A stretch of DNA of 53,696 nucleotides from Catajapyx aquilonaris (lineage: Eukaryota). This document shows, piece after piece, positions 22,636-51,798 of the stretch (position 1 is its first letter; each line of letters opens with the position of its first letter). The stretch is taken from the NCBI GenBank assembly GCA_000934665.2, contig JYFJ02002623.1, forward strand, positions 1-53,696, given 5' to 3'. Below the pieces are notes generated by a model. The model saw only the letters and a program-made list of their open reading frames with translations, searched no databases and had not been told where the DNA came from. The position numbers and the translations under genes are program-made.

Positions 22636-22942
22636 TATAATGCACATTGACAGCCTCTAATGAGTTTTTGAGCTCTATAGCAAAGTACTGTTACGTTCGT
22701 TGACAGACGCTGGGATGATAAAACGGTGAAGATGAAAAAAATGGTCGCAACTCTCCCCTCCAGCTAGAGACATTGCCAACAATAGTGCAGGTCTGCATCA
22801 AAAAGGAAGGTTCATTGCGTACATGTAATGATACTGTAAACACCGACCACAAGTTCAGTTCAAACACTCGTGCGTTCGACAACTTCTGCATCATGCAGAA
22901 GTTGTCGAACTGCATGTCACTACATGAACAAACCGAGCTTAC

Positions 22943-23414
22943 CTTTGATGAAATCAACCGCCTGCTCCAAGCCGTACGTGTCGCGGTCGCAATCATCGAG
23001 CACATGCGCCCCGAGGCGGACCCCTGGCAGGAAATTGCCTTCGTTGAGCACATCCAGCGAGTACAGCATGGCTTCTAAAGCCTGTACTCCACCTTGAGGC
23101 ATGATAGGCCCACAGGTGTGGTTCTCTTCTCCTCTCTCGTGCACCATCATTAAACCACCCAGGACCAGATTACCATCCACCCAGGCCATCTTCTTGGGCG
23201 GCCTCTCTCTGTCGATCCAACTCTTGCTGTTGGGGTTGATGCTGCTCTGTCGCCTCCACCTGTTGTCCCGAGGTTTTCTCTCCATGAGTGACATCCTGGA
23301 CCACCCACTGTCTGGTGGCCACGACAGAAGACATCCTTGCTGCTTCTCAGGGAATGATATTGTCACCAAATCTGCTGCTAGCAGCACTGTCACTAACCAA
23401 GGTCTTACAAACAT
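22943..23414 (-). CDS. mtt: First coding exon of a mangetout/mXR-like metabotropic glutamate receptor family (class C) GPCR. Remaining exons not recognised in the window.
   Basis: MFVRPWLVTVLLAA signal-like start, then Venus-flytrap N-terminus GNLVLGGLMMVHER...CGPIMPQGGVQALEAMLYSLD...LGAHVLDDCDRDTYGLEQAVDFIK. GGLMMVHE, PQGGVQALEAML and LDDCD are mangetout-type rather than mGluRA-type (GGLFPVHE, RGVQRLEAML, LDTCS) as I recall them. Acceptor TTGCACTTTCAG ends at 23459 and donor AAG|GTAAGC starts at 22942 (phase 1). Confidence 0.88.
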
Positions 23415-26400
23415 TTCCACTATACTCAGCACGACTGCAGCATTGTTCGATTCACCAGCTGAAAGTGCAATAGGGATGAATTTGAAATATTGACAACATT
23501 CTGAATTCTTAGTTGGTTCGGTTTCATGAAACTGACCATCTCATGTAGTCAATTGGTTGAAAGTTTTGAGACCCACAAATATTTTGACAGTTTTATACTA
23601 CCTCGCAGATATGACAAAGCCAATTAGAAGTTGCACGAGTTGCTGAGAAATAATTCGTGCCTTCCCATTCGCCAGCTAATACCTAAAAAGGTATATGCTA
23701 ATGTCTTGCATCTTAACAAGGTACGGAAAGCAGACTGCGCGTAACTTTCTCTGACAATCCTGATAGCCTCCATTTATGTACGTCATGTTGTGCGCTCGAG
23801 AAAGGCTTCCTGAACGATGGATGGATGAAGGTATTAGTATACTATACCACCACACTGATGGGAGGAATGCATGAAAGATTTATTACCCGCTTAACTTTTA
23901 TCTCCCGAACCGAAGCTGACCATACAGACAGGTCTCGTGTATAACTGCTCTATTATCAGCAACCTACTAAAATTCCTCCACTTCTGCCATATGTGACACC
24001 TCTCTAGTACAAAAATGATGGATTTGTCGTTCCATCCGCTCTGTACTCCGACGCATGCGCGACTGGAGCGACTAATCCATCAAGTTTCCCCCTACGATTG
24101 TACACCTCCAGGTATCTGTATGCACTGCACATCTAGAGAAACCAAAGTGGCAGGCACTGCTTGCTTGTTTGCCTGTTGTCCTCAGCTCCGTCGCCACCTC
24201 GTCCAAGAGGAAAATCGTGTCCCTGGTCTGCCTGCCACTATCGTTCATACCAGCTTATCAATCTCCCCAAAAAGCTCATAAAAAAACTTGGCTCGCTCAG
24301 AATGATCGATCAGTTACTTGATTGGAAAGTTAATGCTTGCTTCTGACCTGCCACTATTTGTATCCCCCCTACCCCCCACCTCAAAACATTACCACCCGCA
24401 GGAATTGATCGGGAATTTCCTCGCCGGCTCGTAAAGTGATTTTCTTGGTCTTCGTGCCTTGTGGAGATGCAATCCATTCTTTTGCTTGTTGGAGAAAGAA
24501 TGTCTATTGTAACCTATCGTCCAAAATTGGACTGTGCTTATCTTGTTAGGTGCAGCAGTCTTGTCATCCGTGTCCATTTGGCGATCAAAACTGGTAGGAT
24601 GACCTCGGATGATAATAATTTCAGGCCATTCAGGGGTAATTAAAGATGCAAATTAACTATGAATTGTTGAAAAGGGAACAATTCGTAACTCTCCCAAGTC
24701 CACAGCTATTACGAGGTAATTGAAGGATACTTTTTATGTCGTCTTGGGAGCGTTACGACATTTTAACTACATTGGACGTTCAGTTGTGGCCATTAATGGC
24801 CGGTGGGAATGCATACATTTCCGTAAGGGTCAATACTTATCACGAGTGATCATTATCATTCAGTTGGGACGTTGTAATTCTCATAAAAGGTAACGATTTC
24901 TGCGCACGCAAATGAGGTGCTTTCCGGCAGAATTGGTCGCGAATAACGAATTTGTCAGAAGCGATTTTCTTTTCTTTCGAGCAGGATCAGATGCGATTAA
25001 ATTGCAAACTTATCCATTTATTTCCTCTTGGCACAGTCGCCTGATATATATGCAAGAGGGCTAAGAATTTTTCATCCCCTCCTAAAAATACAAAAACCAA
25101 TATTTGAAATATGATCAATTCTAACCAAAAGAGAGTCGTTAGACCAAAGAGCCGGAAGCAATCCAGACCTCGTTACAGAAGCATTGGTTTCGATTGATTA
25201 CACGAATTGTTCGCAAGTGGATTTAAAGGACCCCCCCCCCCCCCAAAAAAAAAAGAGAGGAGGGTTTCGTGTTATACCACCGGAATGCAATCTGCAGGTG
25301 AAATTAAAACTCGTGGGAAAGAATTCGACTCGTCTGAAAGGGTTTGAATCAATTATTTTTGGAGTGCCCCCCCTCGTTTGTGCCGATTCAATTGGGTCGG
25401 AAAATCCGCATTCCAATCTATTCAGCATCTGCTGCCATGGGTTCTCTCCTGGCCCCTTTTCCTATACCATCATGCAATGTTATCGTCAAATTGCGAGGAA
25501 AATGACTGTAATCAGCGTACTGTATGATTTGAGACGATTTTCAACAGGTCTATTACTCTAACTGGGTTTCTGCTTTCCATATGAATGAAAGCGAGTAGTA
25601 TTTATGGTGCAGGGTTGCTGGGCAAAACTCGGGGCGAGGGATTCACGCAAAGTACAGTCTGGTGTGCAATTCGGTACTACACTTGGATGGTTTTGAAAAG
25701 GGTAGGATGCAAAATAAAAAGGCAATGTTACGGGGGAGAGGGGTGTAAATTGGATGGGTGCGATGACGTACGGTTGTGTTGACGAGACCCAAATCTGTCT
25801 GGTTGATGCAGGGCGCCATTCATCAGTCAAAAGGGAGGGTTTGGAATGGAAAGCAACCTCCACCAAACTGAGCATCGTTGCATATATGCAATTTGGTACA
25901 GTGCTCGTTTGTAACCGTGGAATACTACGTGTGGGATATACACTATTACATATCTGAAATTTATAGCTGAATATTTTTGCGTGGATAGTAGTGAGATTAA
26001 AATAATGTTGCGGTGAGATCGACTTGTTAAGAAAGTTGGTAATGTCGACATGGTAAGCAGTGTATTTTGCAAAAAATGACCAAATTAAAAAAAAAACGCA
26101 TGCCTATTAGCTATTACAAATTCATCACGCTTTGGAAAGACCTCCTAGACTTGCAAGATCTTCTCATGCGTTACAATGAAGCTTGAGGTGAAATGGTTTC
26201 TCACCAAACAAGACGAGAAGAGGCTTGCTTTACAATTATGCAACTACATTAGAGCCGGTTGTTTGGTCAGGTGTTGTCAGAGAGGGTGGCCACAACTGGA
26301 TGTAACTACCAGAAATTTCCCAGTGTAGTGGCCGCAGGCCTCGGCCATTACTACATCACTGAATGCGCCAGTGTTGTGGACATTCATAACATTTTGAATA

Positions 26401-29543: not shown

Positions 29544-29760
29544 CATCCTAAATTAACCAATAATTACGATTGGCACATTTTCACATGACGGTACAGTCAC
29601 ACTCGCCAATCACTCCCGGCGACACCACGACCACGTTTCGGACACGTACGTACCAACCTAACCGTCCCACTCTGTCTGCGCCTGTCTTCGGCTTCAGTCC
29701 CCGGATCCGACGGGGATCCTGATGGCCCTCCCTCCGCCCCCCATAACCCCCCCCCCCCTN
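29544..29760 (-). promoter_or_regulatory. Candidate upstream non-coding exon or promoter island of the mtt-like gene
   Basis: GC/CpG-rich island with a consensus minus-strand donor ATG|GTAAGT at 29543-29538. The mtt coding exon has an acceptor upstream of its ATG, so a 5' UTR exon should exist. The assignment is inference. Confidence 0.25.
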
Positions 29761-32616: not shown

Positions 32617-35364
32617 CTAATGCCCATTCAGGGCGCGAGTGAATCCGGCCGAAGTGTTCTCCCCAGAGAAAGAAGGCCGGGGCAGCATGCAGAAGAGGAA
32701 TGTCGGTGGTACAAACACGTAGGTAGTGATGGGGGTGGTGGGTGAATCAATGAAGAGGAGGTGCCCCATGGCATCCATTTCAGTCGAGCTGGTTGCACTC
32801 ACAAAATAATGCATGTATATATACACGAGCGTATATATATATATACACCTGGCAGGTGCAGACCTCGAGTTTGGTGTGCGAAGGACGACGGTCCATTAGC
32901 GCTAGGAAGCAGGAAGGAGTTGATAAATGAGAGTAGAAGGCGGAGGCGGGACATAATTTATTGTGGTCGGGTCCCCGCATTGCAGGCGTGCTGCTGCTTC
33001 TTATTCAACCACCCTTGATCGTGACGAATGACAATGATGATGATGATGGAGGGGTTGCGGTCAGGCACCTCCAGATGTGGATGACTTGTGTAGACGCAGG
33101 GCGACTCACGAGGATTGCTCGGTCGGGTCTGTGGCCGGATCGGTGGTTGCTGAGGTGCTGTTGCCGTGGCCATCTTCCTCCAGCAGCTCCACTGATCCTT
33201 CACGGTACTGCCAGATAGAAACATGTTGGATGAGTTTTAGGAACTTATTCACAGGTATGAGGGTGTACACTATAAACAAATTCAAAAATAAATAATTAAA
33301 TCAGATGACACATAATTATACTGTAAATGCATAATGCAGCATATCCATACTGTACAGTAGGTTAAATAAATTTTATGATCCCCACCCCTGGAAACAAGCA
33401 ATCCCTTGATAGCGTGCGTTTCCGAATATTGCCCTGTATATGCGCGGTTTAACTCTGTACACGTTTTAGAAACGGACTGGAATTTAACCACCTTTGAAGT
33501 TGTTTTCAGGATAGCTTCACACGCCTTTATGATTCACGGTGGAGCTGGGATGGCTGAGTGCAAACACCTACACACGAATTGGTGAAAGTCCGTTTAGAAT
33601 TTTTATCGATTACTTTCAGAGGCTTCTGCCGACCAAAGCTATGGCGCTTCTCAGCCATTATTTTATTCCCCAGCTTCTCCTTTACTTCAATATGGCAAGC
33701 TTTAAAAAAAACCAATAGGCCTCTCCACAAGCTATATAGGAAAATGGATATCAGCATCAGACGTGGTCTGCGTTTAATATTTTTTTATTTGAAGTCGGAG
33801 CAAGCCGAAGATCCCTCTACTTTATTAATGATATGTAAACCTAATTCGTTGATTTTTTACGCTGGTTTCTGAACTCTTCGTAATTATCGGTTCGGTAACA
33901 CTGTATTTTTAATGAGGTTTTCTTTTGCACCCCAGAGGCTCACTGTTGATCTTACCGGCAGCGGATAGCATCGCAGGTCGTAGCTACACCATAGGCCAGG
34001 GCAGCAAGGCACAGCGAAGCACTAGTGATGGATGGGAAAAAATGAGGATATTACGGCATGTTTTTGATATCTGCTCTGCGGCTATATGAATATTTTAACA
34101 ATATTTTCCGGGCTACAAAGTCGAGTAGCCTTTGTAGGCCTACTACAGTATAGAAACAAGACTAACAGCAGACTGAGTTTACAAAAAAATTTATTCAAAT
34201 ACAGGAGTCAGTTAGAAAATCAACAAAACAGAAATTAGTTTGAAAAGTCTGTCAGCATTGAATTACTTAAACGAACTCGCTTTATTTTACATATCCCATT
34301 CGTGCCAGAGGACTTAAAAGTTTTTCGGAAAATCATGCTAACATTCATCAACGGAAATAAGACAATACTTTTGAGAGGAAAGTTATTTTTAGGCTACTTC
34401 TCCGGGCCATAATTCTGTTGGACCGCAGTAGCATTACTGTAACCTACTTTTTAATTGGAAATGTAATATTCACCAAGGTTTGGTTTCATGAAAAACAATG
34501 TTCTCTCTTTTTTTTTTTTACAAAAGCGACTGACTGGTGGAAGAACGTGAAGGTTGTTCCCAAGTCTACCGTCTAACAATGGAGGTGGGGAAGAAGTTAG
34601 AGATTTTTGTTTTTACCCCCAGCAACCCACTTAAAGAGAAGCAACAATCCAGATAAGTCAATGCGATCCTGATTAATGTTCCATCGGTTTTTCTTTCTCT
34701 CTTTAAACTGGTTTTCCATGGCGGTGTATACTGTACAGTCCGAACCTTCTCCAATAAAATGGGGATATGGACCTATATTCCACAAAAAAATTAGCTACTG
34801 CAAACCCACTTAAACTTTTTTCAATTAAAATTTACACCGTTCAAAACCCCAGTTAGCGTCGCATGTTGGCAAAATACAACAACTTTTATTTTACTATTAA
34901 TTGGCATGCCTGCACATAGAGTGGCGTGTCCTAGACCACTGTAATCAAATTGCACATGCTCACATGTCGTGAGCATACAAATGCAAATTTTACACTCCCA
35001 CTGCCAATTGAGACGCCCTGTAAAAGTCTACCGTACCAGACAGTTGAGTGTCTCAATCCCCAAATGCATGGCGGCCTTCTTTGAAGATGTGCCCCACGCA
35101 CGAGCTATTCTATTGACAACATGCATTGTCACGCGACTAATTTCACGCCCGTGCTAGTCGCGAATTTAGAAACTTCAACTTCAAGCCATGACTACAACTG
35201 ATAAAGTGTCTTACTGGGTCCATAGGTGTTCCGCACACGAAGACCTGCGGTTTGGCTTCAGTCACAGTTCCCATCCGTAGAGGGGAATCAGAGTCAAAGA
35301 AGGCCATTGCGATTACCAGAGCACCAAGCCAGCACCACGGCCTAAGGTCACTCTTGGAAGCCAT
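32617..35364 (-). CDS. Putative orphan secreted protein. Exons 35364-35215, 33207-33110 and 32788-32617 give 139 aa. If exon 2 is terminal (TGA just past 33110) the product is ~83 aa.
   Basis: MASKSDLRPWCWLGALVIAMAFF signal-like start; TATAAAA about 40 nt upstream; donor CCA|GTAAGA (phase 0); acceptor TTTCTATCTGGCAG; exon 2 YREGSVELLEEDGHGNSTSATTDPATDPTEQS; donor TC|GTGAGT (phase 2). A phase-2 acceptor joins an open frame to TAG, but that acceptor is weak. No family recognised. Confidence 0.5.
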
Positions 35365-35405
35365 CTTCTTGCACTCTGGAGGTGGAGGACCAGCAGTCTT
35401 TGTCC

Positions 35406-35412
35406 TTTTATA
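35406..35412 (-). promoter_or_regulatory. TATA box (TATAAAA) of the putative orphan secreted-protein gene
   Basis: The minus strand reads GGTTATAAAAGGAC about 40 nt upstream of the ATG at 35364. Confidence 0.45.
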
Positions 35413-36010
35413 ACCACTGTCTGCTGCCTCATACCTTGACCCTCAGTATCAAGAGCTGAATCAGCACTCACACCGTTCCATTTCAACGGAACTGAACCCT
35501 CGAGTAATAAGAAGTGACTCGGGGTTAGTTAAAAAGGTACTTAGTGCTGGAATTTCCCGGCTGGAGAGTGCCGTGGGCTACAACGGGCCTGGCTAAGGAT
35601 TCCATTTACATGAAGTGCCTATTGCTGTAGCGGGTGTAGAGCACAAGGTATGAGTCAGAAATGGCAGGCAAACATATATGGCTTGATGCAGAAGTAAAGT
35701 TGCACTATTTCAAATTGCATACATATTTGAGAGGCTGAATAGTGGCCTTCACATGACTGCTTCCATCAATGCAAAAGTAGACATGTGGCAAAGAATGAGT
35801 CTCATTCTATCTGGGTGAGTGGCGCTACTCTGAAATACGAATTGATGATTAATGGGATCGGAAGCGGAAGCACTGCCAACCGATATGCCATTATGTATGG
35901 AGAAATTATCAAATGGGTCAATTATCAAGTGGGGGAGGGGGATGGAGAGAGGGTGGGGGTTAAATATTCGACACGTGTGAGCTTCAATTCTGAGTGGACG
36001 CCATTTCGTG

Positions 36011-36205
36011 ATGGATGTAAAGTTAGCAGTGATGATCATAGCGATGGTAGTGAATGGACCTGTGGACTCTTTGAAAAGAGAGTTCACCTTTGGCTTCATG
36101 AAACATCAAATGCTGGAAACTAAAGTGTGGCTGGACAAGGGTAAGAAGGCCGATTGCTATTACTTGGATGTTCCGGAGAAGTCCAAGCTCAAAATACAGT
36201 TTCAG
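36011..36205 (+). CDS. Candidate alternative first coding exon of the logjam-like p24 gene (signal peptide plus N-terminal GOLD half). Gives a 228-aa isoform if spliced to 39167.
   Basis: MDVKLAVMIIAMVVNGPVDS signal-like start. LETKVWLDKGKKADCYYLDVPEKSKLKIQFQ aligns with LDYKVEVDAGK-EDCYYLYVHPQASFYVSFQ of the main exon 1 (14/31 identical, Cys kept). It ends at the equivalent phase-0 donor CAG|GTACAG. Confidence 0.7.
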
Positions 36206-38026
36206 GTACAGTACAGTTGGACCTTTTTGATTCTACTCGTTACATTTCCTCGGTCCCATCCAATCATTGAGGTCGAGTCAATTGGAGAACGAACGGATGT
36301 AATGTTAAGCTCACATTCGCGTTTGCAGAATCCTCGCAGATTGCACCACGAACTCAAATCCGTTCGCAGTTATCAGTTTTCAATCCTAATGCATTGGAAT
36401 AACAGCGTGCTCAGCTGTAGACCTGCAAGCATAGGATTTCCATAATATAATAGTCGGTTCCATATATACAGCACTGGGTCAATGCACCCAATATTGTGCA
36501 ACTGCTGTAGCCAAATCTGCAAGAGAAGTGATGGTCGACATTGGTTTTGCACACTTCAATATAGGCCTACATCTAACCCTGCAGCGGGTGTGATGCCGAC
36601 GTGTTCTTGACATCTCATTATCGCATTCCGGATTTTTAATATTAATAGTTATTATGTGGTTTACACTGCTGTATACTGTATTAGTGAGTAGCCTAATCTG
36701 TACCAGTATACATCAAGTGTATAACGGTGAGACAAAGTTTCATTTTGGTCTTACATCAACAATGAAGGCCGCCCAGGATGATCCTACAGTGGCTTCTGAA
36801 AAGGTGCATTAAAATTTCAGGTGAATTATAGCCAAAGAAAAATCGAGGCGTAAACTAGCTGATGCTCAAGCGCCTAATGCGATTAGTGAAGTGCTTTTAG
36901 TTTTCTTTCCCTCCCAATCCTCCCACTCTTAACCTCTCCGTTCAGCAAAGTTAGCGTTTTTAGTCAAGCCCTTCTGATCCATCATTTTCGACGTAAAGAC
37001 ACTTGGTGCACAATTACTCTATCTGTCATAGAGTGAAAAAATTATTTATCTTGGATTTGAATTAACTTATTTTTATGTCGGTACAGTACCATACTCATAA
37101 ATATTTAGCGCCACTAACTTGTTTATTTGAGCTATAACTTAAGTTTATCTTACTCAGAGCCTCAAAATGTCATGTTTTAGAGTGGATTTTGGAGGAGTCC
37201 TACATCATGACTGCGACATTATGATGCATCATGATGCGACAGGATTTCCAATTAGATTAGCCAACTACAGCAGATTTATTAGCATATATATATGTAGGCT
37301 AATATAACCAGATATAACTTAATACTTTTTTTATAATCGTGATAGGTAACTACAGCCTACTCCAAAGTAGCTGCTTAAAAATAACCGTGTTAGTGACAAA
37401 AATAGATACGGTAAGGGTAACTAAAAATGGCATTTCAATAATGAAGACGTCACTTTCCAAAGAGCCCAACTCCACAAGATGAAAGTTTTCAGGAGAGAGA
37501 GAAAAAACTGCTTCATTGATCCATATGGAGTTTTGCAGTTTATGATTCAATTTTAACCTATAGTTCTGGTTGACTTGGGCCCTTCATCTTCACCAGGGCT
37601 GTGAGGCCCGACTCCAAGAGTAGGAATCCGCAATAAAACGGTTTTTCGAAATTTTGGATTTGGGCCCTTTGGCAACAACATTATTCCGCAGACGTGTCGC
37701 TGTGTCGCTGGCGATCAGAGCGTGGCGAAGTTCATCTCTTGAGCCACAGGTGTCGCCCCTGTCAAGAACTGCAAGAAAGTGAAAGCTAGAGAAGGAAAAA
37801 AAAGAATGGGTTAAAAAAATGGATGCAGGCGATGGGGGTCAGCGGTCAGAGCACTGGAGGGGGGTTGGGAGGAAGGAAGGAAAGGCATGGTAATAAAGGG
37901 TACGTGGCGCAGGAGCCGAGCGGGAGAGAAAGGGACTCACTGAGGTGGGGGAGGGGGGATAGCAGCAGGGGAATCAAGCAGGTGGGAGCAACATCTGGTT
38001 GGAGTTGACAGGTGGAAGAAGGAACC

Positions 38027-40288
38027 ATGTGGAGACACACGCTGGCCCCTAGTCTGGTGCTGCTGCTCCTGATGGCCCACACCACACTGGAGCAAGGGCA
38101 GCAGTCAGACACATTCCACCAGGGAACACAGCAGCAACAGCCGCCACAGATGATGCACCAGCAGCCACCACCGCAAATGCACCAGCAGCCACCACCGCAA
38201 ATGCACCAGCAACCACCACCACAAATGCAGCAACCACCACCGCAAATGCAACAGCCACCGCCACAGATGCATCAGCCGTCACAGCAAGAGCAGCATTCAA
38301 CTATTGTGCAGTCGGGGACAGATTTTATGTATGACAATGTGCCTGGGATTGCATTGGACTACAAGGTTGAGGTGGACGCTGGGAAGGAAGACTGCTACTA
38401 CTTATATGTGCATCCGCAGGCGTCCTTCTACGTCAGCTTTCAGGTCACATGTTGTAATTAATAGTAGTTATAGAAGTGTCTCGTAATGAGCATCAGGCAT
38501 TTTTGGGTAGTGCTGGCTTGATTCAACTAGTGTGCTGTTCATGAATAATTTTGTGAAAGGCAGTTCAAGGGCGAAAACCCATTTGAACTCTGGCCAGATT
38601 AAAAGAAACCTAACAAAATATGCAGAAGTCGAATGCAGTTTCTGAGAGGTAAAGGTTGTGATATTAATCGTTACAGCACCTTGATGTCCAAGTCACACTT
38701 GATTAAGCTGCATCCTCACAGTGTGACCGTATAAACAGTGTAGTAAATGATGTAGGAGACCCAAGTCGGCTCCTGGCATTTGTGTTCATCCCCATTAAAG
38801 CCCAAGTATTACACATAAGAATAAGATATAAAATTTTATTGCTATGGCAGAACTACCCATGAAGGATCCTGCCTTGAGAGTACAGCATTGTTTGGATTGC
38901 TTATTTTCACTTGGTCATTATTCGTTTCTTTAAGCATTTTCCTTGTCTGTGCCTTTTAAAGAGCCCCTCTGTTCAGGGATTGTAGTGCAGTTGAGCAAAT
39001 CATTGATCCCATGAGTAAGTTAATGTCTGGTACACTGAATACCATGGTGTAGTGAATATCTTTGTTCAATTCTCATCCAGATGACTTTCACCAAGTGAAC
39101 TCAGCCACCTTTGTGTCCACAACTTGCTGCTTGGTGGAATCTCTCAATGTTGTCGTCTAATTTCAGGTGCTTCGAGGAGGAGATGGGATGGCAGGATTTG
39201 CAGTGAGACAGCCCAGCGGACAGATCGTGTTGCCTTACCAGTGGAGGGCATCTGCTGAGTATGAGGAAAAGTCTGCTCTTGGAGGATACTATGCTCTCTG
39301 CCTTGACAACCAATTCTCTAGATTTGCGTCCAAGCTTGTCAACTTTTATGTTACCACCTTCAGGTCAGGATACTAAAGTGTACTGATATTTCCCACCATT
39401 TTTAGGGTTTGGGCCACCAAACTCAATGTAATGAAATGAAAGGGTTTCTGCTTGTTATTAATTATTGCATGTTAGTTTTTGTTAACAATTAATAACAAGC
39501 GCAATCAGGCTGACAGTGAGTTTGGTGCTCACTGTCCTACTGCCATGTTCCTCCACTAAAGGCTGACTGACAATATTGAGGATGGTTGGCATTGTTGACA
39601 ACAATGAATAACAATAATAAATCCTCAGTCAACATGCGAATGGTGCAACCAGACCTTGGGCATGGCTTACAGTTTGCGCTTAAGGGAACTACTGCATGTA
39701 AGCACAGAATATATTAGGCATTCAATTGCAAATACTGCATTGTGCATTACTCATGTGTAATGATGATAATAATTCTGCCACCTGTCAGTAACATCCGGAA
39801 GGCTTTGCAAGCACCAAACTGTTTTTCCATATGTCAGATTTCTGTGCTTCAAGTGGTGGATCCAATAACAGGTGCAATTGAGATTCACAGACCAAGTCAT
39901 TGATAGCAACTATATCTACAATAATAATATACAATAGCTACTGCCATTGCATTCACCCCTTGCATATGTAGCTAAATATTATTTTTACTGCAGGTATGAT
40001 GAGTGGGAGAAATACACCAAAGAGGTGGAGGCACTTGACCTGGGTGTCCAGAATGTGACCAACTCTCTGGGAACAGTGGACCAGAAAGTACAGGTGATTC
40101 TCCAGGAGCAGCACCTCAGTCGATCCAGGAACTCCAGGGACTTCCACTTGCTGCAGAATAACAGGGACTATGTACAGTACTGGTCTCTGGCCCAGTGTGC
40201 CGTCATCCTGGCCACAGGGGCACTCCAGGTCTTCTTTGTGCGGAGATTGTTCATGATGCCCAGCACTTCTTCAAAGACTCGAGCGTAA
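38027..40288 (+). CDS. loj: p24/TMED gamma-subfamily cargo receptor, logjam-like. Exons 38027-38443, 39167-39363 and 39994-40288; 302 aa.
   Basis: Signal peptide, Q/P-rich linker, GOLD domain (DAGKEDCYY...VLRGGDGMAGFAVR...PYQWRASA...GGYYALCLDNQFSRFASKLVN), coiled coil, TM segment and QVFFVRRLF tail. GT-AG introns in phases 0 and 2 give a continuous frame. Confidence 0.92.
38130..38280 (+). repeat. Coding minisatellite, 21-24 bp unit encoding M(H)QQPPPQ, about 6 copies
   Basis: ATGCACCAGCAGCCACCACCGCAA-type units repeated in loj exon 1. Confidence 0.85.
39415..39527. repeat. Nested inverted repeat (foldback) in loj intron 2
   Basis: Outer arms CACCAAACTCAATGT / ACAGTGAGTTTGGTG (14/15) and perfect inner 14-bp arms GCTTGTTATTAATT (39450-39463) / AATTAATAACAAGC (39487-39500). 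Confidence 0.7.
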
Positions 40289-41028: not shown

Positions 41029-42816
41029 TCAATACAGAGGTGGGAACAGCATGATATTAACTGGAGGGGGACGCAAACTCTGAGTTGGGGAGGTGTAGAA
41101 TAATGTTCTGAGCATATGCCAGAAGAGAAGGTTGAATATTGAGTGTGCTCCAATCCTTCCCAGGCTAGCACTCCACCCTTTGTAAAAGCCACCTGGCCCC
41201 TCAGTCCTTATTATTCTATACACGCAGTTAAACCATCCGGAGTACAACTTTCCCTTACCGTCAGCACCAACTGGCTGCTGGTACAGCCTCGTGGCCACCA
41301 CATCAAAAGGCGTCATGGTAACTGAGTTGCTGAAGCCAGATGCAACTGAGCACAGGATGGGAGCTGCAAAAGGCCCATTGATCCACGCAACTGGATGCTT
41401 GTCCAAGTATTCCATTGTGGCTGAGAAAGTGGTCAGCTGGGTGGCAGATCCAACTGTCATTCGGCCAATGGCCCCATTAACACCCTTCCACAGCCCCTTT
41501 ATCCCGCCTACCCTCCACACTTCTCTCAGGAGGTGCACTGTTCCTGGATTCTTGTGATGTGTTGGGTCTGCTTGCAAGTTGGTCTTGACAAGGTAGAAAG
41601 GGCTGCCTAGGGATGTTCCCAGACATCCTGTAAATCCCGCTGCAATGATACTCTTCCACCCAACAATCTCGCCAGACTTGTCACCTGTACCATGGAGATA
41701 CCCCCGTGCCTCCATCCAGTGATACGCACCCAGTCTTGTCCCATTCATTATGAATTGATAACAGAGGGCAGGTGCCAGACCCTTTTGCACAGCACGTATT
41801 CCTTCCCCACTTGCAACGTGCCATACTGCCTGGAACACATTCTTGTATTCAATCTGTAAAATAATTTACAGTGTAATTATGTGAATTATTACGTCACTAA
41901 GTGTTTGCAGAAGGGCAGTCATTTTCTCCACAAAATTGACTGTTGTTGCAGGAGAAAGTAATTTGGTGACTGCTGAAATAAGTCCTTATTTATTCTGGGT
42001 GGTTACTTCCACCTCAGGTGTCAGATGTATCCTGCAGCATTGTGGCTATCGTGTACTCTTACATCTAGATGCACCTTTTCCAAGAGCCTTTTTCAGCTGG
42101 AAATCTGACAGAAAAATTGGAAATTTTATTGCTGTTTTTTTTGTTGACAAAACTAATACAGTAAAACCTCGATATAATGGTCGTCTCCAAGGGACCGCCC
42201 AAAAGTAGGGATATAGGAGGGATAGTGTTATAAACAGGAAAATTTACCTTATGGAAATGATCAAGGGAACAGAAAAAAGGGGGCGTTTTATCGAGGTTTT
42301 ACTGTATTACATTTTTCTTCTCCTTTTACAGCTGAAAAAGGCTTCCAGGAAGCAGGTACAACCTGGCTTTAGGGAGAAAACAAATGGGAAGCAACACTTC
42401 ATAGATAATAAGGCCTGAGAAGTCACAACTGATTGTGAGTGGATCTGGTTTGGAAATAGTACGTGAAATTTTCGTTGTACTACTAGTTACTTTTAAATTA
42501 GCAATACCAGTGTAATGCAATGGTACTGCTAAGTTAAAAGTCACTAGTAGTATGACGAAAATTCCCCCAATATGTTCAAAAGTTGACCGCTCTTCAGTTG
42601 CTTCAATCCATCCTACCCATGTGTTACTTTCCATGCTTGCTACGTACACAGTTGTCCCCCCTAGTACCGCTACTAGTAGTTCAGTAAAATATCTACCGCA
42701 TATTGTCCTTTGGCCTTCAGCTCCCCCTGCATCTGCAACCTCGTCTTGGCCACATCTAAGGGGTTGCTGATTACTCCAGCAGCCACTGACGCAGTGCCAG
42801 CCAATAGAAATTCCAT
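41029..42816 (-). CDS. SLC25A35: Mitochondrial carrier, SLC25A35/SLC25A34 (Oac1-like) family, copy A. Exons 42816-42697 and 41853-41029; 314 aa.
   Basis: [101 protein letters not shown]. Three carrier repeats and one phase-0 GT-AG intron. Confidence 0.92.
42159..42304. mobile_element. pogo/Tigger-like MITE, 146 bp, in the intron of SLC25A35 copy A
   Basis: 16-bp perfect TIRs CAGTAAAACCTCGATA / TATCGAGGTTTTACTG with TA on both sides. Confidence 0.85.
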
Positions 42817-43437: not shown

Positions 43438-46093
43438 ATGGCAAGGAAGAAGGCAAGCAGGGCTGGCAAGAAGAAAGGTGCTGTACCACACAGCGCAACT
43501 CCCCAGCAGGTGATTCAGTTGCTGCCGACGGCTCTCATGCACCTGGAGGCCTTCCTCCACAAGGTATATCCTACAGGGCTGCAGCACTGGATGTGAGGTC
43601 ACACTAATTGTTCTGTGCGTTGCAGGTTGCTTGCCTGGATGTGTTTGAAGTTCTGTCGTTCAAGTACAAGCTGCGTGATTCGTGTACAGAAGAATCGGAG
43701 GAGAAGGTCGTGACAGGTGGGGACGATGCGCTGCAGGATGGCCTGGGACAGCTGGTAGGAGACCTGGTTGGACAGCTGCAGATGATTCTGGCTCAGGTGC
43801 AGAGTTTGGATGGTGGGGACAAGGAAGGCGGGGATAGAAGGCCCGGACTGGATGGAGGGTGTGACAGCCCAGCAGGTGATTTAATACTGTGAGGGTTTGC
43901 ATCTGCAGTCTTCAGCCAGCCTGAATCAATGTCTTGAGTAGTAAAATTTCATTGCCAATATATGCAGCTTGTATTTCACGCCAGGAAAGTCAACCTCACA
44001 GGTTTATTTAGAGGAGCCAGTAAATACAGGGTGGCAGGGGATGGTGGGGGTGGGAGGAACAACAGTGGAGGGGAGGGCGGATGGAGGAGTGGATGGACAG
44101 GGGGGATGGGGGTCTTTGCTGGCGGGAATGGAATAGAGGGGCTGGGGGTGGTAGTGGGGAGAGGGCGATGTGACTCCTTCGGCCGTCAGAGAAGGAATGG
44201 ACAGTTTCCCCAGCAACTCAACAGAGGAGTTGGTTACACCCCATTGCGCATGATTAGAACGCGGGCCAATGTCCCATGTCCTTTTCGTCTCCTGCGGCCA
44301 AGGATGACCTCGGAGGTCAAGTGCAATGTGCTTATGACCTTCCCAGTAAAAAACTACCCCTGATCATTCCCCTGGGGCATAATATGTCAAGGCCTCTGTA
44401 TGGATTTGCATCGGGATCAGACAGACAGACATACATTGAGAAATATGTATTAGATTATATCCCAGCCTGTTGAGCAAAGTCTAGTGAGCGAGTATTGCTA
44501 CAAGAAAATGGCTTTAAAAGACAACTGGTTTCAAATAGTCGAGACTAATTTTGTATTTCCATTAGGTAATGAGGGCATCATTCAGGACGACGACCACATG
44601 TACAACGAGAGTGACAGCAACTTGTTTAGTGCCGTGCAAAATACTTTGAATGGGGCATTGCCAAGGAAGAAGGGGCGCAATAGCAGAAAGAAGAAAGTGG
44701 TGGAGGAAGAAGTAGCTGATGTTCCATCCACTTCTCCGCCACCATTCCTGTGCTGCCAGGCATGCCTTGGCTGCTTCCCTTCCTCAAGTGACTCAACATT
44801 CAGTTCCCATTCCTGCAAGGGCAATGGAGGAGATGCCTCTCTCCCTTCACCCATCCCAGTTTCCCTCTGTGCCTCCCGTCTTTTAAAGCTTCGTCGCCTA
44901 GTATGTGGAGTTTGTGGAGAGGAATACCGCAGTGTCTCACGCATGACCTACCACTTGTCCCATACTTGCACAGCTGGCCCTTACCCTTGTGAGCTGTGCC
45001 ACCTGCAATATCCAACTAGGAGGGAACTGAATTCCCATAAGAAGAGTTCACATTTGTCTGAGAGGAGCTTTTTGTGCTCTGAGTGCGGAAAAGGCTTCAA
45101 GTTCAGGGCTTCCTTGCAGAAGCATCAGGTATGGTGAAATGTAGTGAGTTCACAGCACTTACTGTTAGAGGGACAGTGGACAAGATACACTTGCATTGAA
45201 GTAATTCTCTTTTCAATCGTATTCATTAATTATTTTAAATGCCATAGTTTTAATTATTAATTTTTTGCTCTGATTGTATCCTAATGTAGTTCATTATGTA
45301 GGAGAATAGGGACTGATGGTAAAATGACATGGCAAATTCAGGCGATACTTTTTGTAACTATTCCCATCGCTTTTTCCATCATTTCCAGGTGAATAGACAT
45401 GAAACTACTGCTGCGACTGCAGGCCTCCCAACATGTCAGCCATGTGGCCGAACATTTGTGCGCAAGACCCAACTGCACGCACATTTATCACGAGTGCATG
45501 GCATTGATCATGAGTCAGAGAGGCGCTTCTTGTGCCAGCAGTGTGGACAGCGCTTCTACACAGGTGGAGCCTTGAAACAGCACCTGGCCTTTCACTTGCC
45601 TACAGCACCAGTGTTTCCCTGTCCCCACTGCTCCAAGTCATTTGGGCGAAGAGACAAACTCAAGTATCACATTCGCACCCATACTGGGGAGAGACCTCAT
45701 CCTTGTCCTGTGTGTGGGAAGGGTTTTGTGCGAAGGGCCAAAATGCAGGAACACTTGCGGAGGCACAGGGGTGAGAGACGACATGTGTGTCCCCACTGCA
45801 CCACCCCCACACACAGAAAGGCATATGCATCCTCCTGGGATCTCACTGTGCACCTCAGGAAGCACCATGGCCATCAGTCAGCCGCAAGCGATGGGAGTGA
45901 AGTCCAAGAGGAGCCCCCAGTCTTGCCACCAGAACCAATTCCTGCATCACTTCCACCTCCTCCTACTTACGTACAATTACTGCAGCTCCCTACCTACCAG
46001 CAGCAACAGCAACCAGCAGGGTTCTTGCTCACACCATCTGCAACTTCGCCTTTCAATATCCTCTCTGCCACTGTCAGTGGACTGCTTTACTAA
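43438..46093 (+). CDS. Multi-C2H2 zinc-finger protein. Exons 43438-43563, 43626-43875, 44566-45128 and 45389-46093; ~547 aa.
   Basis: About 8 fingers (e.g. CSECGKGFKFRASLQKHQ|VNRH split by an intron, and CPHCSKSFGRRDKLKYHIRTHTGERP). Basic NLS-like N-terminus MARKKASRAGKKK and a P/Q-rich C-terminus. Introns in phases 0, 1 and 0, the first two with CTAAT branch points. The first two exons are less certain than the finger exons. Confidence 0.85.
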
Positions 46094-46959: not shown

Positions 46960-48689
46960 ATGGAGTTCGTATTGGGCGGGTGCGCGGCCGTGGGGGCGGG
47001 AATATTGAGCAACCCGATGGAGGTGGCCAAGACAAGGATGCAGCTGCAGGGAGAGCTGCAGGCCAAAGGGAAATACCAGGTATCGGCAGACGGAGGAATT
47101 TGCCAATTTCGGGCGTAATCAGTGCACTTAATCGTTGACGTACTCACCTTGCCCGACAGTTACGTCACATTTCGCGGGTCCGGCAATGTTTTCGCATCCT
47201 ATTTGATATGTATGGTCATCCTCAAAGGTGTTGAGATATGTTTTGGCGTAATGTGCAGATAAATTTCTGGTTCATGCAGGAAATATTACTTGCTTGAGAG
47301 GATTATTCATTCATTCATTCATTACACTCACAGAATATTCCCAAGATGGGGGCTTGGGAGGATTATGAAATGTGTTAATGGGACTTGACTGTAATCAGTC
47401 TGAAACAGGATATACTCAGCTGTTCATTTTACAGAGAGCAAAGAAGGACACTGTCAAGTGAGGGCTGAAGGACATTTCCGTCCCGACACTGACAATGAGA
47501 CACATATTAAAATTTTGTTCGTGAAAGATTTCCTCTCATGTGTAAATTAATATTTACATGTTGACTGAATACACCAACATACTAACCTATATACTTCCCA
47601 GTATAGTATTTGCAAGTTGTCTTTAGCCTGCTAATGGTATATTCAAAAGATTAATTGTGGCCATTATGCCAAAATCGTCCCATTGGTTTTTATGTCACCA
47701 GTAAATCCTGACCATCCAGAGGCTCGTGACAAGATCTCGTTGCTAATGCTCAATTAGCTTTTCAGTTTTGGTTGTGACCTCTGTCCTGGCTCTTAAATTT
47801 ACAAACTATTGTGTAATGATTACAATCCCAAATTATCAAGGCTTCCTATGAAATCTGATATTAATGTGAGCTTCTTCTTCTTCAGATGCACTACAAAAAT
47901 GTGATTCAGGCCATGTGGCGCATTGGATCTGAGGAAGGACTGCGCTCCATACAGAAGGGTCTGGTTCCTGCCTTGTGGTACCAGTTCACAATGAATGGTG
48001 TGCGGTTGGGGGCATACCATTGGCTGCAGGCAAGGGGCTTCCTCCAAGGGGATGGAGAAAAGGTTGGAGGGATGCCTGGATGGAGGAGCGTTGTTGCTGG
48101 GGCAGTATCTGGTTGCATTGGGACAACCATAGGCAGCCCGTTCTACTTGATCAAGACTCATCTGCAGGCCGATGTTGGTAGAAAGAAGAATCCAGGGGTG
48201 ATTCAACTTCTCACATTAGAGTATAGGGAAGGAGGGAGAGGACTCGTGGGGCTCTGGAAGGGAGTTGGAGGAGCCATTCCTCGTGTGGCAGTTGGCTCAG
48301 CAACACAGTTAACCACCTTTGCAGCCACTATGGAGCTACTGAAGGAGTACCCAGTGCCTTGGGCTAGTGGACCCTGGGCAGCTCCCATCCTGTGCTCCAT
48401 GGCCTCAGGTGTGACTGTGTCTGTTTTCATGACGCCTTTGGATGTGGTGGCTACTAGGCTGTACCAGCAGCCACTGGATTCAAAGGGCAAAGGAATGTTG
48501 TATTCTGGTTGGTTTGACAGTGTCTGGAAGATTTTTAGGACTGAGGGACCTCCAGGGTTTTACAAGGGATGGACTGCTAATCTTGCAAGAGTAGGGCCAC
48601 ACACAGTTTTTACACTGGTGTTCTGGCACTGGCTTAGGACACTCTTCTATAACTCGGGTCCTAGTACCACCCAACCCTCTGCTACATGA
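46960..48689 (+). CDS. SLC25A35: Mitochondrial carrier, SLC25A35/SLC25A34 (Oac1-like) family, copy B. Exons 46960-47079 and 47886-48689; 307 aa.
   Basis: [102 protein letters not shown]. Same intron position as copy A; AATAAA at 48750-48755. Confidence 0.94.
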
Positions 48690-50025: not shown

Positions 50026-51798
50026 TCATGGCCGCCAGTCAGTAACCATGGAGCCAAGCAGTTCAAGAGTTTCATCGTAAGCAGCCATATCTGTAAGGAA
50101 TAGGGTAGGTGAACAATTTAGTTGAGTAGCATATTAAAATACGTATATCATGCCGCATCTCTTTAAAAAACGTGAGGTACCCACCAAAATTAGTGGTAAT
50201 TTCATCAGGGAAGGCAATGTACGAGTCGGCAACAATAGTATTCCTGGGCTGAGCTTTTCCCCTAACCTCCACCAGGCATCCATCATTGCTAGCCCGAAGG
50301 TCATCATCCAAAGGGTTCTTTAGACGTACTTGAACTGGCTTATTGTCACTTGCCATAAGCTCAAAACCCATGCCATTTCCTTCCACCTAAAACCACAATA
50401 TACGTTGTAAAACATCCTTCTTAAGGCTGGTTTCACCAAGCCCGGTCTTGATAAAACCGGGCTTGGTGAAACCGGCCCTTAAAATCACGATGAAAAGGGG
50501 GGAAAAACTGCCAGTATAGTTATTCAAAATGTACTTCACAAATTAGCTGAAGTATAAGATTGCATCTTGCTTTACAGCTAATATACGGCAATTGACGATG
50601 ACTTAAATATTCTTTTGCCTGTACAATTTATGCATGGTAACATTTTGACAGTTGGAAGTTGTAGAGAGAGGTATTTATGCAACAAATGATCCCAGCAGAT
50701 GGGGCTCATTGTTATTGCTCTGACCGACTAATAACAAAGACACATCATCCGTCTAAAATTGATATGCATTGAGGTGCGATCAAGTATTATACAGGGTGTT
50801 TACGACCTAACTTTACAAACTTCTAGGGGTAATAGAGGGGCCCAAGACAAACATATTTCACATAGGAACCCGTGTCCGGAAACGCCATCTCGAGGGGGTT
50901 CATAGACGAGGAACGGGTGCGCTCAGACACGTCAGGCGGGGGGCGTTGGCGGTCGGAGCTTTTAGTTGCTAGGTGGCACGTGGATTGTACACAACTTCGC
51001 AATTCGCAATAACCTGGCAACAACTATCAACTAAAGTCAGCATGCTACAGGCAAAGAGTTCTGCTATATTATATATACACCTAGAGGAGGTACTCGGCCT
51101 GAAATGTGAGGCAGGCAACCATGCAGGCAACAATATGACCTCCAACAAGATGGCGGACGCCTGACATTACTGAACTAATTGTCGCCCAGTTGTCATTATT
51201 GGTTGTTGTACCAGTTGCTAGACAACTGTTAGAACAACAATATGACCTCCAACAAGATGGCGGCTGCCTCAGCCTGTCTAATGGAAAAGGATAGGGAGTA
51301 CCTCCTCTAGGTATTATATTATATAATAGCAGAACTCTTTGGCTACAGGTAGCGCGCAGATAATAAAGAACAACTCTGTTGTTGCCAGGTTATGGCGAAT
51401 TGCTGAGTTGTGCACAATCTGCGCGCCACCTAGCAACTAAACGGTCTGCTCACTAATGCCGCCCGCCTGACGCATCTGAGCGCACCCATTCCTTGTCTAT
51501 GAACCCCCTCGAGATGGCGTTTCCGGACACGGGTTCCTATGTGAAATATGTTTGTCTTGGGCCCCTCTATTACCCCTAGAAGTTTGTAAAGTTAGGTCGT
51601 AAACACCCTGTATACCAAGTGAAGTATTGTACCACACTCCCAATAGAGACGCACCTTTGTAACCCTTCCAATGAGGATGACTTTCTTCCCAATCACTCGT
51701 CCCAAGTAGCCTGCATTGATTCTCAGTTGGAAGTCTAGGTCCTGGTCCATTCCAGGGCCATCGTACTCCATCTTCATATCACCAAAGTCGTCATCCAT
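50026..51798 (-). CDS. RPA3: Replication protein A 14 kDa subunit. Exons 51798-51655, 50386-50185 and 50090-50026; 136 aa.
   Basis: RINAGYLGRVIGKKVILIGRVTK|VEGNGMGFELMASDNKPVQV...LVEVRGKA...NF|DMAAYDETLELL fits the RPA3 OB-fold pattern. GT-AG introns in phases 0 and 1; minus-strand AATAAA at 49892-49887. Confidence 0.9.
50425..50477. mobile_element. Minimal hairpin element, probably a Harbinger-type MITE reduced to its TIRs
   Basis: 22-bp arms GGCTGGTTTCACCAAGCCCGGT / ACCGGGCTTGGTGAAACCGGCC (1 mismatch), 9-nt loop, TTAA nearby on both sides. Confidence 0.7.
50792..51610. mobile_element. Large foldback Tc1/mariner-type non-autonomous element, 819 bp, in RPA3 intron 1
   Basis: 116-bp perfect TIRs starting CAGGGTGTTTACGACC, imperfect inverted homology continuing to about 51090/51296, TA TSD, and a central 29-bp direct repeat. 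Confidence 0.93.

Follow-up and report, generated by a model that had tools for sequence, protein, structure and literature searches.

A p24-gamma gene of Catajapyx aquilonaris with two candidate alternative first exons, each encoding the first strands of the GOLD domain

The p24 gene and its two first exons

A 53,696-nucleotide stretch of Catajapyx aquilonaris DNA (contig JYFJ02002623.1 of assembly GCA_000934665.2; its full length is referred to below as the window) carries a p24 gene with a single set of downstream exons and two candidate first exons, 1A and 1B, all on the forward strand. The coding part of exon 1B (38027-38443) specifies 139 residues ending in ...VSFQ; a Q/P-rich linker here separates the signal peptide from strands beta1-beta3 of the GOLD domain, which include the first of its two Cys residues. 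Exon 2 (39167-39363) supplies the other half of the GOLD domain, including the second Cys, and exon 3 (39994-40288, the stop codon TAA at 40286-40288) encodes the coiled coil, the transmembrane helix and the cytoplasmic tail. Exon 1A lies at about 2 kb 5' of exon 1B; its coding part (36011-36205) specifies 65 residues, from M to ...IQFQ, with a signal-peptide-like N-terminus, strands beta1-beta3 and the first Cys. The allocation of beta1-beta3 to exon 1 is our own mapping from the Cys and the strand pattern. Both first exons end at a phase-0 donor, CAG|GTACAG for 1A (GT at 36206) and CAG|GTCACA for 1B (GT at 38444). The first Cys stands in the motif DCYYL in both, the second in YYALCLDNQ of exon 2. 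In the translation of exon 3 the membrane helix YWSLAQCAVILATGALQVFFV is followed by the tail RRLF..., in alignment with orthologues. Across the joins VSFQ|VLRGGDG and TTF|RYDEWEK the translation reads as the uninterrupted sequence of arthropod orthologues does, and the model of exons 1B, 2 and 3 is therefore sound. The predicted proteins are 302 amino acids long for 1B-2-3 and 228 for 1A-2-3.

The gene had been assigned to p24/logjam in an earlier annotation made from the sequence alone (the first-pass annotation), and profile searches bear this out. Exons 2 and 3 both match Pfam EMP24_GP25L (PF01105), exon 2 with E 3.5e-6 (27.6 bits, cutoff 25.9) and exon 3 with E 5.7e-14 (53 bits), while exons 1A and 1B on their own have no Pfam match. 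A search with exon 2 found 26 proteins at E <= 0.001 among 98 candidates; those with an organism label come from crustaceans or insects, and NCBI uses the name TMED5 for several. With the arthropod orthologues so named, exon 2 shares 68-78% identity. Against solved structures, a profile of 21 orthologues ranks TMED5 first (2.7e-26), followed by TMED2 (5e-14) and TMED9 (2e-9); exon 2 alone gives TMED1 at 8.6e-4 and TMED5 at 0.033. Logjam is described as a member of the gamma-p24 group in a published study (PMC10932740). From this and the profile ranking, the gene is of the p24-gamma, Logjam/TMED5 type, in a genome that is arthropod-like, and crustacean-like by its nearest proteins. Hallmarks of a p24 protein are present in the translation, namely a signal-peptide-like N-terminus, two GOLD Cys residues, a C-terminal transmembrane helix and a short tail, giving a type I topology. 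Drosophila Logjam and human TMED5 and TMED1 have the same order of domains: signal peptide, two-Cys GOLD domain, coiled coil, transmembrane helix and short tail.

Exon 1A is open and intact, as had been proposed in the first-pass annotation; it has kept an ATG, a signal-peptide-like segment, the Cys, the hydrophobic strand pattern and the homologous phase-0 donor. Its ATG has a purine at -3 and a G at +4. The signal peptides of 1A and 1B were judged by ranking KD hydrophobicity. On this scale the N-terminal 10-residue hydrophobic stretch of 1A, at 3.28, is the highest in a set of 461 open frames of the window that start with ATG and span 35 codons or more, a value reached by 1A alone (0.2% of frames), and the corresponding segment of 1B scores 2.64, with 2.2% of the frames as high. 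Exon 1A is rich in Lys (10 in 65 residues) and has no Q/P linker. The mature part of 1A has an isoelectric point of 9.4, compared with 4.1 for the equivalent part of 1B. The exon is contained in a forward-strand frame (35981-36445) of 154 codons from stop to stop, which is long for non-coding DNA here.

In exon 1B the linker consists of a 24-nt tandem repeat (38131-38274), in which five overlapping 48-nt copies with 60-100% identity encode QQPPPQM(H). Orthologues carry long repeats of the QQVPM type at the same place in the cDNA-like metagenome contigs L001 and L002, and short ones in others; a Q/P linker is also found in protein P0008, which like L001 and L002 is a crustacean-like orthologue. 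None is present in L005 or in insects, and a form without the linker is therefore not unusual for the family. Judged by these sequences, linker length varies widely within the family.

No second copy of exon 2 or exon 3 was found in the window (tblastn, word size 2, E up to 10), the best non-self matches having E 0.25 for exon 2 and 0.12 for exon 3. The latter, at 45204-45112 near a zinc-finger gene, was taken as chance, as was a candidate third p24-like exon at 51018-51110 (tblastn E 2.4), which lacks the Cys. There is no assembly gap between 1A and 1B, and the region 35000-38026 has no repeated copy elsewhere in the window. The sole N of the window, at 29760, terminates a long run of C (29720-29760); runs of G or C are frequent in the window. 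The first-pass annotation had described one downstream exon set, with nothing comparable between the two first exons, and this was upheld. Its coordinates, the FQ| phase-0 donors, both isoform lengths, the Lys-richness of 1A and its lack of a linker were likewise reproduced, as was the 14/31 identity of the two first exons that is considered below.

Homology, origin and age of exon 1A

Exon 1A is homologous to the end of exon 1B. In a pairwise BLASTP comparison the last 31 residues of 1A are identical to those of 1B at 14 positions, with one gap (E 2e-6), and tblastn recovers the match in the window with E 3e-4. When aligned by hhalign to a family profile of 21 sequences, 1A scores a probability of 69% and E 4.3e-5, compared with 99.3% and 2e-20 for 1B. 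The alignment pairs residues 33-65 of 1A with columns 35-66 of the profile and stops exactly at the exon boundary. The GT of the 1A donor falls at a codon boundary homologous to that of 1B.

The direction and timing of the duplication can be read from a comparison with the 30-residue core that precedes VLRGGDG in 33 orthologue sequences, M[DE]YKVH[IV]D.GKE[DE]CY[YF]Q[YF]V..GAT.YVSFQ. This set comprises 9 loci and 24 proteins and includes near-duplicates (P0004/L001; P0014/P0015/P0017; L006/L009/L011); P0011, which reads through an intron and has no exon 1 core, was left out. Core positions 1 and 17 are M and Q in all 33 orthologues, and L and L in both 1A and 1B. Because these two L states are exclusive to 1A and 1B, 1A was copied from a 1B-like exon in this lineage, after its split from every sampled relative. 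By these residues, exon 1A is a lineage-specific duplicate of the first exon. The relatives sampled are distant, and several have no intron at FQ|V. The insect genomic open reading frame calls P0006 and P0011 break directly before VLRGGDG, and from such breaks the end of exon 1 is a conserved intron site.

The duplication is old. Synonymous differences between 1A and 1B, calculated by NG86, are saturated (pS 0.777, 13.3 of 17.2 synonymous sites), with a pN of 0.352, and by codon position the two differ at 14/30, 8/30 and 17/30 sites. The 300 nt upstream of the two exons are 28.7% identical in register, which is the random level. A local alignment of the flanks scores 26, compared with 23.2 +/- 2.5 for shuffled sequence (maximum 36), and nothing significant was found in them beyond the 13-mer discussed below. 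It is this saturation of synonymous sites, together with flanks that resemble random sequence, which argues for age. The first-pass annotation had spoken of an old, maintained duplication: the first adjective stands, while the second was overstated, 1A having changed far faster than 1B and having lost conserved residues.

Despite this age, a short sequence is shared upstream. The G-rich 13-mer GTGGGGGAGGGGG occurs at 35929-35941 and again at 37945-37957, both on the forward strand and each 82 nt 5' of its exon's ATG, where it is a candidate promoter or 5' untranslated region element. It is the sole exact run of 13 in register between the two 300-nt upstream regions. Runs of at least 13 arose in 3 of 20,000 block shuffles that kept local composition and allowed shifts of +/-3 (P 1.5e-4). 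A 15-mer search with up to 2 mismatches gave two matches in the 53.7 kb, both strands included, and these are the two -82 sites alone. Searching the orthologue loci for an 11-mer gave three matches; each lies 3' of the gene on the minus strand, and they were set aside as irrelevant. If real, the motif would be a common footprint in two upstream regions that have otherwise become random, as expected of two active promoters with a single ancestor.

How readily the present state of 1A could arise by drift was considered by simulation. Relative to 1B, exon 1A is still open, keeps the Cys and 14 of 30 aligned residues, and has hydrophobic residues at 11 of the 14 positions that are hydrophobic in 1B (the three lost are all Tyr), with one 3-nt indel. 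In the simulation a 1B-like ancestor evolved neutrally, and the joint outcome scored was at least 11 of 14 hydrophobic positions, no stop codon, the Cys kept and at least 14 identities; indels, the retained ATG, the donor GT and the N-terminal 34 codons were left out. This outcome was reached with frequencies of 0.109, 0.022, 0.0013 and 3e-5 at d = 0.3, 0.45, 0.65 and 0.9 substitutions per site, respectively. The 37% of first and second positions that differ correspond to a d of ~0.5, so that the observed retention has a frequency of ~1-2% under matched neutral drift. The fairest reading of these data is that 1A was a working, fast-evolving coding exon for much of its history.

Splicing, folding and alternative explanations

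We lean, with somewhat better than even confidence, towards the reading that exon 1A is an alternative first exon of the p24-gamma gene, the use of which would swap strands beta1-beta3 of the GOLD domain. According to this model, the promoter-proximal region and the first coding exon were tandemly duplicated in this organism's lineage, and 1A and 1B would each be used from a promoter of their own, each CAG|GT phase-0 donor being joined to the one acceptor of exon 2, at 39167. The 1B transcripts would yield the orthologue-like 302-residue protein, with acidic beta1-beta3 strands behind the Q/P linker. Those from 1A would yield the 228-residue protein, in which basic, Lys-rich beta1-beta3 strands follow without a linker. 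The remainder of the GOLD fold, the coiled coil, the membrane helix and the sorting tail would be identical in both isoforms.

The consensus for donors is CAG|GTAAGT; by hand count the donors of 1A and 1B, the latter validated by orthologues, each match it at 6/9 positions and that of exon 2 at 7/9. If 1A is transcribed, direct splicing to exon 2 over an intron of 2.96 kb is the simple expectation. As a first exon, 1B has no acceptor of its own, the sole candidate being an AG at 38010-38011. The first-pass annotation had pointed to this AG as a formal acceptor for 1A; it is indeed present and in frame with the 1B ATG, but it follows a weak pyrimidine tract, the 20 nt before it containing 9 pyrimidines by hand count, compared with 13 before each of the acceptors of exons 2 and 3.

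What the swap might mean for the protein can be judged from work on related GOLD domains. In a structural study of TMED1 (10.1101/2021.02.13.431076), the homodimer interface is built from beta1 and beta2, as it is in TMED5, and a disulfide links beta2 to beta7; the same study proposes that an acidic convex face of the GOLD domain may be exclusive to the gamma subfamily. Since the dimer interface, the disulfide Cys of beta2 and the acidic face involve the strands encoded by exon 1, the swap should alter specificity and surface charge. With CYYL of beta2 retained, the strands of the interface would change and the local charge would be inverted, and the specificity for partners or cargo should change with them. 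Half a GOLD domain presumably cannot fold alone, and only 39167-39363 and 39994-40288 could complete it, which counts in favour of the joining of 1A to exon 2. The mature 1A piece (residues 21-65) and the exon 2 piece, unaltered and supplied as separate chains, were also submitted to co-folding. The pair scored 0.60, compared with 0.30 for the best of 3 controls, with contacts agreeing at >=98% between runs and a partner pLDDT of >=73; it thereby passed a mark that is attained by 51 of 78 solved complexes and by 2 of 108 mismatched pairs. Whether the GOLD domain is modular at the level of the gene, two promoter-linked first exons supplying acidic and basic beta1-beta3 modules that co-fold with a shared beta4-beta8 half, we regard as an evenly balanced question.

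A number of observations weigh against the use of 1A as an alternative first exon. The support from co-folding is weak. Scores of 0.60 or less were obtained for only 5 of the 78 solved complexes and for all 4 passing mismatches (of 180). Because the two pieces are halves of one known fold, the co-folding pass may reflect memory of solved GOLD structures, and indicates compatibility at best. The test of the upstream 13-mer was post hoc, the motif having first been noticed by eye, and runs of G are over-represented in the window, where an 11-mer has 14 matches at up to 1 mismatch (expectation 0.39) and three copies in its exact form. By hand count, 1A has lost residues that are kept in the orthologues (Y3T, E12 in the indel region, Y18D, P21E, T24K, Y26K and S28Q), and departs from the consensus core of the family at ~19 of 30 positions, compared with ~6 for 1B, as relaxed constraint would also produce. 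Its differences at first and second positions (22/60) are not clearly below the neutral expectation given 17/30 at third positions. The codon-usage score of 1A, from log-odds trained on 1,287 codons of the window's other exons, is 0.044, compared with a null of -0.036 +/- 0.096 (P = 0.18).

Comparative searches gave no counterpart of 1A either, which belongs on the same side of the balance. No second copy of the first exon was found in any of the 33 orthologues, each of which carries a single core of the 1B type; for four genomic loci the comparison extended over 0.7-2.2 kb of flank upstream. No 1A-like protein was found among 5.8 billion clustered proteins (longer forms; 4 candidates, none with E <= 0.01), no 1A-like GOLD core among 1.84 billion representatives, and none of 91 pattern matches of 1A to metagenome contigs was confirmed. 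The sole match in the 1.84 billion representatives, P0005, was judged spurious (E 8.5e-4, 26% identity, residues 12-34 in six stretches, outside the GOLD core). The blanks in these protein and metagenome collections carry little weight, because each of the three also lacks this organism's own 1B. The named clusters of the ESM Atlas likewise gave no usable match to 1A.

The leading alternative, which we consider unlikely though a serious contender, is that 1A is a silent relic. It could stem from a tandem duplication of the 5' end of the gene, or from a duplication of the whole p24 gene followed by the loss of exons 2 and 3, the copy having lost its productive use or never had one, with no stop codon or frameshift acquired so far. 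Such a fate would accord with the very fast evolution of 1A and its loss of residues that are invariant or almost invariant among the 33 orthologues, with first- and second-position differences near the neutral expectation, with codon usage that does not reach significance, and with the absence of 1A-like proteins from the databases searched. Other old duplications lie at the locus, for example an inverted pair of SLC25 genes. Yet drift would rarely retain the frame, the Cys and the hydrophobic pattern together (0.022 at d = 0.45; 0.0013 at d = 0.65), and the simulation takes no account of the kept ATG, the signal-peptide-like segment that ranks at the top of 461, the donor GT or indels. A 13-mer at the same -82 offset is also unexpected in dead DNA. 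A variant of the relic, in which 1A died recently after long use, would look the same as a living exon in these data.

The use of 1A as an alternative first exon has also to be set against its expression without exon 2, which we consider improbable. In one form of this idea the unspliced frame of 145 codons, from 36011 to the stop at 36443-36445, would give a small secreted or membrane protein; in another, 1A would be spliced to the AG at 38010-38011 and read through 1B. The 35981-36445 frame does run 80 codons past the donor, and the AG is in frame with the 1B ATG. However, the part beyond the donor has no Pfam match and a codon score of -0.064, at the null level, and p24 homology ends exactly at FQ|GT. 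A lone half GOLD domain should not fold. For splicing to 38010 the acceptor is poor, with 9/20 pyrimidines against 13/20 at the true acceptors, and half a GOLD domain would then precede, and bury, the signal peptide of 1B.

Chance resemblance, or an assembly artefact in which a separate paralogue was collapsed or misplaced, is very improbable: the alignable core is just 31 residues long, but it aligns with a BLASTP E of 2e-6 and a family profile E of 4.3e-5 up to the same exon boundary and phase, the L residues at core positions 1 and 17 shared by 1A and 1B occur in 0/33 orthologues, no N lies in 36206-38026, and 35000-38026 is without a repeated copy elsewhere in the window.

Capture of 1A by a transposon was considered and rejected, the sole flanking inverted repeat being 21 nt at 86%, probably by chance. 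This repeat (35070-35090 / 36753-36773, 86% complementary) brackets 1A at a spacing of 1.66 kb and could be the trace of a mobile element.

Related gene architectures and neighbouring features

The p24 proteins are thought to diversify by duplication of whole genes. Full-text literature searches on p24, TMED, logjam and emp24 with alternative first exons, exon duplication or isoforms returned no report of such a p24 gene, in agreement with the first-pass annotation, which knew of none diversified in this way. The p24-gamma orthologues recovered, 33 sequences in all, have a single first-exon type each, unlike the C. aquilonaris locus. The only pair of isoforms seen among them, X1 and X2 of Anabrus simplex, differs at the C-terminus and is alike in the GOLD domain.

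Variable-first-exon loci are known from UGT1A and the clustered protocadherins, in which tandem paralogous first exons, each with a presumed promoter of its own, are joined to shared constant exons. The likeness extends to the proteins, as the first exons encode a signal peptide and the N-terminal, ligand-facing part, and the constant exons the membrane anchor and tail. The p24 locus differs in having two first exons only, in a split that falls inside one small domain whose halves must co-fold, and in that promoter use and splicing are putative. Alternative exons are also said, by Kondrashov and Koonin in 2001 and by Letunic et al. in 2002, to be born by tandem exon duplication. The p24 pair resembles these in offering a diverged copy of the same phase and length class for mutually exclusive use. 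It differs in that the pair consists of first exons, between which the promoter, rather than the spliceosome, would choose, and in that 1A lost or never had the linker (65 codons, compared with 139).

If 1A is used, the locus would represent a cheaper route to diversification, requiring the duplication of just a promoter and the first three GOLD strands. Drosophila has nine p24 genes, four of them gamma, according to the study cited above (PMC10932740). The duplicated strands include the dimer interface of the gamma GOLD domain and contribute to its acidic face, as the TMED1 study describes them (10.1101/2021.02.13.431076). The outcome would be a pair of receptors that differ in dimer interface and luminal charge while their coat-binding and membrane parts are identical, in effect a natural split-domain swap by which early-secretory specificity for cargo or partners could be diversified. 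Such a pair would amount to an experiment set up by nature, asking which GOLD half determines the choice of partner and cargo, and would show what degree of divergence the halves of a small beta-sandwich tolerate before they cease to co-fold. Should 1A be unused, it is an ordinary old partial duplication.

Several other features lie in the window. The nearest recognisable gene upstream of 1A is marked by a frame on the reverse strand (22923-23540) whose last part matches the beginning of Pfam ANF_receptor (E 5.8e-7), and which probably represents the initial coding exon of a receptor gene that runs leftward. Downstream, the p24 gene adjoins an old inverted gene duplication of the SLC25 family, with Pfam Mito_carr exons at 41032-41865 on the reverse strand and 47865-48686 on the forward strand that share 62% protein identity and are 70% complementary over 408 nt of DNA. 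The pair flanks a C2H2 zinc-finger gene, represented between the carrier genes by large open frames at 44454-45134 and 45323-46090 (forward strand) with multiple C2H2 zinc fingers, which are probably exons of one gene. Further downstream, a 237-nt inverted repeat (50788-51024 / 51378-51614), 92% complementary and with 353 nt between its arms, may be a foldback element or the terminal inverted repeats of a small mobile element.

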